Positions 8,875-11,833 are shown, numbered from the stretch's first letter. The stretch is 64,000 nucleotides of DNA from Candidatus Altimarinota bacterium (GCA_963664295.1 OY760935.1:768001-832000); one strand, 5' to 3'. The notes: a model not told the origin generated them from the sequence alone. Numbers and translations: made by a program.

Positions 8875-10671
8875 ATGATAATTCAGCCTTTCAAAAAACC
8901 AAGCTTTGCAAGCATAAAACTTCCCGGTTCAAAGTCTATAACTAACCGGGTTTATTTATATTCTGCATTAGCACAGGGAACAACAGAATTAAATAATGTT
9001 CTTGAAAGTGAAGACACAGAGATAATGCGCACTGCCTTAGAACAATTTGATATAAATATCGAAAATAATAAAGTTCACGGAAAAGGCGGAAAATTCACAA
9101 AAAAAGGTGACCTAGAAATATATTGTGGCAATGCTGGCACAGCTACCCGCTTTCTCATAGCAATAGCAGGATTAAGAAAAGGTACAACAATTTTTAAAGG
9201 CAAAGAAAGAATGCACTCAAGGCCAATAGAGCCACTATTGCAATCTTTAAGAGATTTAGGAGTAAAAGCAGAAAGCATTAACAATAATAATTGTCCACCA
9301 GTAAAAATCATTGGCACAGGCAAAATAAAAGGAGGTAAAACAAAAATGCGTGGAGACCTTTCCAGTCAATTTTTTTCTGCACTTCTAGCCCTTGCGCCAC
9401 TGTGTGAAAATCCAGTAGAAATTGAAATTGAAGAAAAACTAGTTTCCAAGCCATATCTTGAAATGACTATTGCTCTTTTAAAAAAATTTGGTATTCAAGT
9501 TGATTTCAGTGGACAATTTCTCAAAATAAAACCACAAAAATATATTTCACCAAAAAAATTTGAAATAGAAGGAGATGCCTCATCAGCAAGCCACTTGCTT
9601 AGTATAACCACAGCAGTAGGAGGTTATCTCGAGGTTTATCCATTGCCCGCAGATTCAGTTCAAGGTGATGCAAAATTCTGCACTGTCCTAGAAAAAATGG
9701 GTGCAAAATATGAACAAAAAGAAAATAAATTAATTTTAATTCGCAATCCCGAAAAATACTTAAAACCATTAGTAGAAATTAACCTTGAAAACATGCCTGA
9801 TGCAGCCATGAACGCAGTGGTATTATCCACATTAGCCAGTGGAGAATCGACAATTAAAGGCTTATCCACGCTTCGCCACAAAGAAACAGATAGAATAAGT
9901 GCATTAACAACAGAATTAAAAAAACTAGGAGCAATTGCGGAAAAAGGAGACGACTTTATAAGCATAAAAGGAGGAAAAGAACTAAACGGAGCAGAAATAG
10001 AAACCTACGACGACCATAGAATGGCAATGTGCTTTGCCGTATTAGGAGCAAAAATAAAAAATATAGATATAAAAGATCCAGATTGTGTTAAAAAAACTTT
10101 CCCCAATTTCTGGAAAGTTTTTGAAAAAATGAAACCCAAAAAAAACATAGTATTAAGCGGAATGCGCTGTTCAGGTAAGACAGAACTAGGAAAAAGACTA
10201 GCCAAAACTTGGGAATGGGATTTTTTTGACACGGACCAATATATAGAAGAAAAAGCAGGCAAAACAATTAACGAAATTGTTGCAGAAAATGGCTGGGATT
10301 ATTTCCGCGAACTCGAACACATTGCCTGTAAAAAAGCCAGTGAAATGAGCAATACAGTAATTGCTCTCGGCGGAGGCGCAATCACCTTTCCAAAAAACCA
10401 AGAATTACTAAAAAACTCCCTCAAAATATTCTTACAAATGCCATTAGAAATACTTTGTGATCGCATAGCAAAAACAAGCGATAGGCCATCATTAACCGGT
10501 CAATCACACATTGAAGAAATGGAAAAAATCTGGGACGAACGCAAAAAAATCTACTTAGAAACAGCAGATTTAGTAATAAAATTCAATAATAACGATATTG
10601 AAGACAATGCAAATAATCTATTGACAAAATTGGAAACTTTGTATAAGATAATATCCTTTGCCAAGAGCTAA
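8875..10671 (+). CDS. aroA: Bifunctional EPSP synthase / shikimate kinase (AroA-AroK fusion)
   Basis: PGSKSITNR, GNAGTATRFL, SSQF, LRHKETDRI, DHRMAM, KTFPNF, then a P-loop SGMRCSGKT with FRELE and GGGA. Confidence 0.95.
   Translation: MIIQPFKKPSFASIKLPGSKSITNRVYLYSALAQGTTELNNVLESEDTEIMRTALEQFDINIENNKVHGKGGKFTKKGDLEIYCGNAGTATRFLIAIAGLRKGTTIFKGKERMHSRPIEPLLQSLRDLGVKAESINNNNCPPVKIIGTGKIKGGKTKMRGDLSSQFFSALLALAPLCENPVEIEIEEKLVSKPYLEMTIALLKKFGIQVDFSGQFLKIKPQKYISPKKFEIEGDASSASHLLSITTAVGGYLEVYPLPADSVQGDAKFCTVLEKMGAKYEQKENKLILIRNPEKYLKPLVEINLENMPDAAMNAVVLSTLASGESTIKGLSTLRHKETDRISALTTELKKLGAIAEKGDDFISIKGGKELNGAEIETYDDHRMAMCFAVLGAKIKNIDIKDPDCVKKTFPNFWKVFEKMKPKKNIVLSGMRCSGKTELGKRLAKTWEWDFFDTDQYIEEKAGKTINEIVAENGWDYFRELEHIACKKASEMSNTVIALGGGAITFPKNQELLKNSLKIFLQMPLEILCDRIAKTSDRPSLTGQSHIEEMEKIWDERKKIYLETADLVIKFNNNDIEDNANNLLTKLETLYKIISFAKS
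10621..10649 (+). promoter_or_regulatory. Sigma70-type promoter inside the 3' end of aroA-aroK
   Basis: TTGACA (10621-10626)-N17-TAAGAT (10644-10649); predicted start ~10656 coincides with the first helix of the downstream structured element. Confidence 0.6.
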
Positions 10672-11140
10672 TAATGTAAGTCAGTTAAATCAAACATTTG
10701 TTTTGGCAAAGAATTGGGCAAGAGACGGGGAATTTTTCACCTGCTCACTCAACAAATCATTGGTGTAGCAGAGGTGTCCCCCCGTCTCAACGATACTCAT
10801 TACGATCATCAAAGGGACAAATCGAATGAGCTAGGTGCAAAATCGTCGACTCGGCGAAAATGCATCAGCTCCCTACCGTTCTTTGGCATATCTGTAAACC
10901 GGAATGCCAGCGGTATTTTTTGTTTTTATTTTTTTTGGACCTGCTATACGCAAGGTTAAAAACAATTTTTTTATTTTTGTTTTTTTTGTTCACCTCACAA
11001 GGAGGCTACTTTTTAATGGTGTCGGCCAGAGTCGAGTGGCCATCAAAAAGTAGGGAGGAAGAGAGCTTGAATATTTTTATGTTTCAATTAAGATTAATTT
11101 GGTTTCAAGCCCCAATTCCTAACTACCATTTCCGTCTCTG
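10656..11140 (+). ncRNA. Unassigned large structured non-coding RNA candidate
   Basis: At least eight stem-loops plus long-range pairings; G-U wobbles favour the + strand; GC-rich stems in an AT-rich genome; no credible ORF. Confidence 0.65.
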
Positions 11141-11242
11141 TCAAAGATCAAGTTATCAGATAATTTTATCAAAAATTTTCTCATCAGTCAATCACTTCCT
11201 TTTTCTTAACGTTTCATACTATAATACTATAATTTAAAATAA

Positions 11243-11833
11243 ATGTCAAATCTAAAAGGTAAATTATTTTTACTCATCGGACCCTCTGGAGTAGGCAAAG
11301 GCACAATAATAAAAAACCTCAAAAAACAGCATAAAAACTGGGTATTTCCGGTTTCCGTCACAACTCGCAAAAAAAGACCCGGCGAAAAAGAAGGCAAAAC
11401 TTATTATTTTTACAGCAAAGAAAAATTCGAAAAACAAAAAAAAGAAGGAGCTTTCCTGGAGTGGGCATGTGTACATGGCAAAAATTATTATGGTCTCCTC
11501 AAAAAAACAGTTTTTGATGCACTAAAAAAAGGCAAAGTTGTCTTTCGTGAAATAGATATACAAGGATTTGAAAGCGTGCGCGAAATCGTACCAAAAGAAA
11601 ACTTAGTATCAATTTTTCTTTTACCGCCAAGCCTAGAATTGCTAGAAAAAAGAATTCGAGAAAGATCACCACTAACAGACGAAGAAGTAGCCAATAGATT
11701 AAAAAGCGCAAAAAAAGAAATATCCTTAGCAAAAGAGTGTACTTATCAGGTACAAACAGTGAACCTAGAAATCGAAAAAGGTGTAAAAGACATAGAAAAT
11801 ATTGTTTTTAGTGAACTTGCTGACAAAAGCTGA
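11243..11833 (+). CDS. gmk: Guanylate kinase
   Basis: GPSGVGKGT, SVTTRKKRPGEKEGKTYYF, FLEWA, EIDIQG. Confidence 0.97.
   Translation: MSNLKGKLFLLIGPSGVGKGTIIKNLKKQHKNWVFPVSVTTRKKRPGEKEGKTYYFYSKEKFEKQKKEGAFLEWACVHGKNYYGLLKKTVFDALKKGKVVFREIDIQGFESVREIVPKENLVSIFLLPPSLELLEKRIRERSPLTDEEVANRLKSAKKEISLAKECTYQVQTVNLEIEKGVKDIENIVFSELADKS

Follow-up and report, generated by a model that had tools for sequence, protein, structure and literature searches.

A stretch of 64,000 nucleotides (nt) of the Candidatus Altimarinota bacterium genome (GCA_963664295.1 OY760935.1:768001-832000; here called the window) carries, between an aroA-aroK fusion gene and gmk, a large, conserved, structured noncoding RNA (ncRNA) that has no Rfam family and occurs class-wide in Gracilibacteria. 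Homologs were found in 60 or more of the 151 genomes sampled from this class, representing about 20 families, and covariation, agreement with RNAalifold, and conservation in a close strain demonstrate selection on the fold. The sequence evidence makes it very probable that the RNA is transcribed from the minus strand, divergently from gmk, and the transcript is predicted to span about 11156 to 10715 (~440 nt), both ends being predictions. Regarding function, we tentatively propose that this would be a stable RNA acting as a decoy, holding a factor or a 30S site that reads an A-rich motif found in mRNA start regions.

Fold and distribution of the RNA

A preliminary description of the window had already proposed a large structured ncRNA at this position, and all 20 strands and the promoter hexamers it listed are present where it placed them. 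Folded as the plus strand, the region reaches -144.3 kcal/mol compared to -113.2 ± 5.2 kcal/mol for 100 dinucleotide shuffles (z = -6.05, 0/100 as low), and the minus strand comes close (z = -5.22, 0/100 shuffles); because both strands are about equally stable, folding energy does not distinguish between them. Read in the minus sense (Table 1), helix P1 (CUCCCUAC/GUAGGGAG), which is 97% paired in 43 homologs, closes a ring containing P2, a variable hairpin, between one and three A-rich tracts, and an H-type pseudoknot, and the ring is followed by P4, P3, and the 3' domain Pt. The ring and Pt alignments each used 43 of 64 homologs, rows with long insertions or failed anchors having been left out, and the shuffles compared with them ignore kinship. 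With these bounds, 92.2% of the cells in the MAFFT alignment of the ring pair, with 107 two-sided changes, while Pt is 91.3% paired with 100 two-sided changes, and in neither case did any of 500 shuffles score as high; the same Pt helices were returned by RNAalifold unaided. Stem 1 of the pseudoknot is 84% paired and stem 2 98% paired in 43 homologs, again with two-sided changes. The loops of P2 and P4 covary as UCGACUC/GAGUCGA, CCAACU/AGUUGG, CGAUUC/GAAUCG, and CCGAUA/UAUCGG, and this kissing pair attains a score of at least 12 in 84% of 43 testable homologs compared to 32% of shuffles. From the core to the 3' end, the homologs have a median length of ~412 nt (range 304-580), and some of them lack P3, P4, and the kissing pair while retaining a tract.

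Upstream of the ring lies the leader hairpin P0, for which 43 of 64 homologs, compared to 1.6% of shuffles, form at least 10 of 13 Watson-Crick pairs; it is missing from some others (e.g., L246 and L255). It can cover the core (CUCCCUACUUUUC), so that P0 and P1 are mutually exclusive. A second, weakly supported leader pairing, with strand K, shows 7/7 pairs in 13 of 48 homologs compared to 8% of shuffles. Between the window and a close strain, represented by contigs of four DNA or unknown-type runs, 13 of 217 aroK bases differ but only one place in the covered part of 10674-11158, the A/T-rich 10912-10993 having been left out. A 12-nt stretch of the core (AAAAGTAGGGAG) recurs twice in the rest of the genome with one mismatch, both times outside the rRNA genes.

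Several of the helices first drawn require revision. The CTCC/GGAG pairing is real but was incomplete, as it belongs to an 8-bp helix (CTCCCTAC 10869-10876/GTAGGGAG 11050-11057); the hairpin formed by TCGTCG/CGGCGA is present, and its loop kisses 11029-11035; and TACCG/CGGTA is better replaced by pseudoknot stem 1. For helix 1 (10656-10711), which lies partly inside the aroK coding end, and for the GAATTGGG/CCCAATTC helix, no counterpart was apparent by eye, without a count, in the homologs viewed. A conserved stop codon or open reading frame (ORF) in strand K was considered and dropped, as CAG and UGG variants exist, and so was a resemblance between the 3' domain and helices II-III of 5S rRNA, as the two carry the bulge on opposite strands and 5S rRNA has a gene of its own.

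Table 1. Predicted features of the RNA and its neighborhood, in window coordinates
Feature	Position	Strand	Remarks
aroA-aroK fusion gene	8875..10671	+	convergent neighbor; variable in relatives (ssb, rpsT, others)
Convergent promoter TTGACA-N17-TAAGAT	10621..10649	+	inside aroK coding end; lineage-specific, would yield an antisense transcript
Predicted ncRNA, ~440 nt	10715..11156	-	3' end may reach ~10650
3' domain Pt	10722..10788	-	long helix; conserved CACCUCU (10770-10776) and GUG internal loops
P3 helix (CUC/GAG)	10796..10830	-	between P4 and Pt
P4 hairpin	10836..10864	-	loop GAGUCGA (10846-10852) kisses P2 loop
Strand K, CCAAAGAACGGUAGGGAG	10869..10886	-	its GUAGGGAG closes P1 with 11050-11057
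H-type pseudoknot	10884..10914	-	stem 1, 10911-10914/10898-10901; stem 2, 10904-10909/10884-10889
A-rich tract 2	10916..10936	-	immediately before pseudoknot; direct repeat D1
Variable hairpin	10939..10957	-	separates the two A-rich tracts
A-rich tract 1	10966..10987	-	contains AAACAAAAAUAAA
P2 hairpin	11006..11039	-	kissing loop UCGACUC (11029-11035); partner strand 11006-11019
Core strand, CUCCCUACUUUUUGAUGG	11040..11057	-	5' strand of P1 and P2
Leader hairpin P0	11045..11131	-	arm 11116-11131 can pair weakly with 11045-11060, hiding core; inner hairpin 11065-11110
boxA-like motif, TTGATCTTTGAC	11140..11151	-	strict pattern in 36/68 homologs
Predicted promoter of the RNA	11163..11191	-	TTGACT-N17-TG-n-TAAAAT; predicted start near 11156
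gmk	11243..11833	+	divergent neighbor; common, not universal

The count of 60 genomes is the union, taken from both result tables, of two covariance models that matched 31 and 54 of the same 151 genomes, and one of these class-wide searches gave a single strong match per genome. When 39 loci were checked by eye, the architecture was present in most, with G014 and G079 doubtful, and sequence away from gmk, viewed at 18 further loci, revealed the element in 6 genomes missed by the models, with nothing clear beside gmk in the rest. By blastn, 15 of 61 genomes match, including all 7 of 7 from the family. A search of genome contigs with an 18-base pattern gave 69 matches, of which nhmmer kept 30 and set 39 aside as chance, and metagenome matches were filtered by a four-feature rule. 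The kept loci comprise 27 labeled Gracilibacteria, Peregrinibacteria, Peribacteria, Altimarinota, or Patescibacteria and 3 labeled Nitrospirota, and the analysis placed the window taxonomically by these labels. In the Nitrospirota-labeled bins, L055, L066, and L086 are ssb-RNA-gmk loci of the Peregrinibacteria type, and given that their ssb/gmk context is like that of the Peregrinibacteria records, they are probably misbinned. Beyond the class, the model of the 3' domain found nothing besides this genome in a phylum-wide sample of 151 genomes, and the ring model gave 6 matches, 5 of which were viewed, with G463 alone having promoter, leader, ring, and tract; there is thus one clear copy in a class other than Gracilibacteria.

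The element contains many inverted repeats, as would a miniature inverted-repeat transposable element (MITE) or other selfish repeat. However, blastn finds a single copy in the closed 1.215-Mb genome, synteny is conserved, the helices covary, and no match was found in the viral contigs, phages, and plasmids searched, so this explanation is effectively refuted.

The RNA fits no tested family. In agreement with the earlier view that it may be undescribed, Rfam 15 gave no match at gathering score in the window, only three weak ones (E 1.7-2.8) far under the cut-offs, and in 20 homolog loci only tRNAs exceeded the cut-off, again with three weak matches below it. A literature search found nothing on such an RNA, although it did not extend to the supplements of large motif screens, where a listing is possible; a term search of PMC11109978 returned no passage on these taxa or gmk.

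Specific identities can also be set aside, including those the preliminary description had already discounted. The element is similar to tmRNA (RF00023) in its size, in its boxA-like leader, and in having a ring that is closed by a helix and contains a pseudoknot and an A-rich strand, but it lacks the tRNA-like domain, the CCA end, and the tag frame, and the true tmRNA is a separate gene (G000:C1:748048-748482). RNase P RNA and 5S rRNA are likewise separate genes. No model match to signal recognition particle (SRP) RNA was obtained, and neither a large SRP RNA nor Ffh or FtsY was found in the genome. A group I or II intron does not fit an intergenic element with its own promoter and no Rfam intron match, and a riboswitch or T-box leader does not fit a general promoter that faces away from gmk and a context and orientation that vary. 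As a separate observation, at G000:C1 965388-965753 the 3' half of a tRNA-Phe gene is partially duplicated in tandem behind the gene, an arrangement that ARAGORN at a relaxed threshold calls a permuted tmRNA.

An RNA polymerase-binding RNA, similar to 6S (RF00013) or Ms1, would also be a single-copy, stand-alone RNA with a strong promoter and a housekeeping-like spread, and no 6S RNA was found in this genome, even by nhmmer with 6S sequences from five relatives. The fold, however, is branched and two to three times longer than 6S RNA, with no RF00013-type rod of 150-200 nt bearing a central bubble, and a separate 6S-like gene is present in 22 of 101 genomes of the class, 14 of which also carry the element. 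We consider this explanation improbable. The 6S-like RNAs themselves (L311-L315 and 17 further genomes) are short (150-165 nt) and mostly under the Rfam cut-off in Gracilibacteria, and none was found in this order.

Strand and promoters

The minus strand is favored because the promoter on the gmk side is general and because the longest helix has a pronounced G-U bias in this sense. A near-consensus promoter of the sigma-70 type on the gmk side and pointing into the element, typically TTGAAA-N17-TG-n-TATAAT, was identified in 60 of 68 homologs. The RNA had originally been assigned to the plus strand with its own promoter at 10621-10649, but an equivalent of that promoter is present in only 12 of 60 evaluable homologs, all of this order, and lacking in 48. 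It had also been argued that G-U wobbles favor the plus strand, yet in Pt, with helices picked by a strand-neutral score, 56 sequences yielded 54 G-U compared to 9 A-C oppositions in the minus sense. A U-rich tail, with at least 6 T in the 10 nt after Pt, follows in 31 of 43 homologs.

Other counts weigh against this orientation or are neutral. A near-invariant opposition in P2 is A-C on the minus strand and G-U on the plus strand; an unanchored count over all stems gave 87 G-U and 75 A-C, compared to 16 and 42 in shuffles, the known-RNA controls having almost no countable stems; and in the leader helix, G-U relates to A-C as 66 to 77 with edge positions and as 40 to 28 in the 13-nt core.

The preliminary orientation corresponds to a plus-strand gmk leader or riboswitch, in which P1 would act as an antiterminator competing with the P0 hairpin. 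It would account for the presence of gmk next on the plus strand in most loci and for the mutual exclusion of P0 and P1, and the plus promoter in 12 members of the order and the P2 opposition would fit it as well. However, it is difficult to reconcile not only with the rarity of that promoter, the general minus-strand promoter, and the G-U bias in Pt but also with loci where the element persists without gmk following (L035, L057, and the f10 loci), with G127, where it lies the other way round with respect to gmk, still with a -10-like hexamer at the CUCCCUAC end, and with the promoter-like sites that gmk has of its own. A gmk leader therefore appears to have only a slim chance of being correct. 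The convergent plus promoter is an order-specific feature (10621-10711; L002-L008, L010, L011, L013, and L184), and a short hairpin or boxA-like motif often lies behind it.

For the minus-strand RNA, the boxA-like motif TTGATCTTTGAC is also informative, as in the same genome the promoters of tmRNA, RNase P, 16S, and 23S are followed by a similar motif, as are several other consensus promoters, and NusB is encoded there.

A-rich tracts and a possible role in translation initiation

The single-stranded tracts in the ring have the consensus AAACAAAAAYAAA, with A at alternate positions. In 162 tracts, 19 non-A residues fall in the five inner odd columns compared to 58 in the four even columns, a count anchored on C and Y alone that replaces an earlier column table circular for parity. 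In GC-rich relatives, the tract drifts to ACACAAACACACA, and inside the motif, A-to-C changes outnumber A-to-G changes, making it less plausible that the tract pairs with a U-rich strand. Both the periodicity and the ACACAAACACACA drift point to the tract being read by a protein rather than through base pairing.

The same motif occurs before start codons in a genome that hardly uses Shine-Dalgarno (SD) sequences, with GGAG in 4 of 513 start regions. Of 23 exact genomic copies, 7 precede an ORF start, compared to 14/480 for 43 variant spacings, and across the 151 genomes the motif followed by ATG gave 155 matches in 63 genomes. As controls, the pattern read backwards totaled 22 matches when its table was summed, and shifting the spacing by one base gave 24 matches in 18 genomes. 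The spacing-variant controls replace a reversed position weight matrix (14/182 compared to 11/137), which the near symmetry of the motif made invalid as a control. The 3' end of the 16S rRNA (GGACCACCCCUU, G000:C1 about 568660) has a noncanonical anti-SD sequence, and the 16S gene is unlinked from 23S-5S (G000:C1 569-570 kb and 1134-1138 kb).

What is observed, and underlies the decoy proposal, is that the fold is conserved, that promoter and boxA-like sequences are present, and that the tracts share a motif enriched before AUG. A strong promoter and boxA would give high, antiterminated transcription, as for the rRNA, tmRNA, and RNase P genes of this genome. The leader P0 would at first hide the core and then be displaced or trimmed, allowing P1 to close the ring with its one to three AAACAAAAAYAAA tracts. 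Within the RNA, AUG follows only 17 of 136 tracts, and the last tract runs into the pseudoknot. The pseudoknot would sit where an mRNA has its AUG, making binding unproductive, and the kissing loop and the 3' domain would stabilize the particle. Any effect on translation would come about through binding, for which the candidates comprise bS1 or the 30S platform and three small proteins, namely an RRM protein of 83 aa, KhpA, and one with a PUR domain. The four proteins are encoded in the genome, which also encodes HPF, and the regions upstream of their four genes showed no autoregulatory motif. The small proteins are located at G000:C1 1064754-1065002 (RRM), 501140-501403 (KhpA), and 1156459-1156776 (PUR domain, near rpsR).

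There is precedent for such a role in CrcZ and CsrB/RsmY, small RNAs that sequester proteins, the CrcZ motifs being A-rich. The element resembles them in being a stand-alone RNA with several copies of a motif found at mRNA start regions; in common with CrcZ, A-rich motifs are shared by the RNA and mRNA start regions, with family f9 not supporting this. It differs in its two-base periodicity, as opposed to ARN triplets or GGA loops, and in its conserved tertiary core, and it scores 10.2 bits with the CrcZ model compared to a cut-off of 95. A CsrB/RsmY sponge proper was rejected, as CsrA was not found in the genome and the repeats are A-tracts rather than GGA loops. The two-base A repeat is also like the A-L motif of Gram-positive Hfq, for which PMC3675490 describes recognition of A at every second position. 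However, no LSM protein exceeded the cut-off in 40 relatives, and no Hfq or LSM match was found among 259/262 small ORFs scanned; the tract reader must therefore be another protein or the ribosome.

Several points tell against the decoy proposal. The proteins of known sponge RNAs (Hfq, LSM, and CsrA) were not found in this genome, and to our knowledge known sponges do not need such an elaborate core. The strict motif precedes only a small minority of genes; of the 155 matches to the motif plus ATG, most are pattern matches with unconfirmed start codons, 14 come from one genome, many of these near contig ends (likely a repeated element), and 2 lie inside the RNA itself. The AC-type motif is not enriched before ATG in the GC-rich family f9 (3 compared to 2 in 20 genomes), the motif plus ATG is also common in families f13 and f23, where the RNA was not detected, and in some f18 homologs the tracts of the ring are weak or absent. 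The motif is also found before terminators and in other intergenic elements, and it may be a general chaperone site.

These last observations would also fit a stand-alone, ornate RNA with a structural or catalytic job of its own, such as a ribonucleoprotein scaffold, ribozyme, or oligomer, in which the A-tracts are chaperone landing sites. The pseudoknot and the kissing loop, together with core nucleotides that do not vary and internal loops that are conserved, are more than a sponge needs, and the large bacterial OLE, ROOL, GOLLD, and raiA-motif RNAs likewise combine a pseudoknot with a kissing loop, the cages of ROOL and GOLLD being built by kissing loops (PMC12286853). The element is unlike these RNAs in being chromosomal, single copy, without Rfam match, and not found in the phage collections searched. 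Moreover, the Rfam comparison of the window and 20 loci recognized no known catalytic core, and P3, P4, and the kissing pair are missing from some homologs that keep a tract. A scaffold or ribozyme thus seems a doubtful, although serious, candidate.

It is less likely still that the element is a housekeeping RNA of Patescibacteria that would clamp the 30S subunit directly, presenting an SD-independent start signal in a closed ring with a pseudoknot in place of the AUG and so parking or rationing small subunits, which would be switched on by refolding or trimming of the leader and, in this order, countered by the antisense promoter.

Two further possibilities treat the tract as coding or templating sequence. 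In a translated RNA, similar to an internal ribosome entry site or to tmRNA, the tract and pseudoknot would launch a short peptide; AUG follows 17 of 136 tracts, and the tmRNA loop resembles the ring in its single strand, hairpin, and pseudoknot. However, core-to-K distances occur in all three phases with no conserved start or reading frame, and the tRNA-like domain is lacking, with tmRNA encoded elsewhere, which makes this very improbable. A template for repeat synthesis, similar to telomerase RNA or to the RNA of DRT-type reverse transcriptases, is suggested by the order of the telomerase RNA core, namely an enclosing helix, a hairpin, a repeat-like single strand, a pseudoknot, and a 3' stem. 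Yet PF00078, the only reverse transcriptase family searched, found no such enzyme in the genome, the chromosome is one closed contig, and the tracts differ within one RNA, leaving hardly any likelihood for a template.

The tract motif was also observed at additional loci. A second stand-alone ncRNA candidate with a TTGACA-N17-TACAAT promoter, hairpins, and the same A-tract motif lies between opposite-strand genes (G000:C1 about 376690-376930, plus strand; L334). Two related intergenic elements (about 756300-756800, minus strand, and 1191000-1191420, plus strand) end in the motif and a terminator-like hairpin, the former containing three direct repeats that begin TTTGACCTAGGATACACAC and are spaced ~120 nt or less. 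At G000:C1 984520-984720, two ~40-nt direct repeats with the motif occur in a very AT-rich gap upstream of a dnaN-like gene, a possible replication origin, and in another class of Patescibacteria, several copies lie between mraZ-like and rsmH-like genes (L267, G483:C3:7279-7389).

Implications for minimal bacteria

Bacteria with genomes of ~1 Mb retain very few RNA genes, and the maintenance of this element as a single copy in such a large share of the class points to a core role next to those of tmRNA, RNase P, and 6S RNA. The presence of AAACAAAAAYAAA before AUG provides a defined start-region motif where the one genome checked makes so little use of SD sequences. Start-site choice in such bacteria thereby becomes directly testable, with the RNA serving as bait for the factor involved. 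If the decoy proposal is true, the mechanism would be a new variant of the sponge RNAs, and if the RNA instead clamps the 30S subunit, it would represent an RNA-based control of translation initiation in minimal cells.

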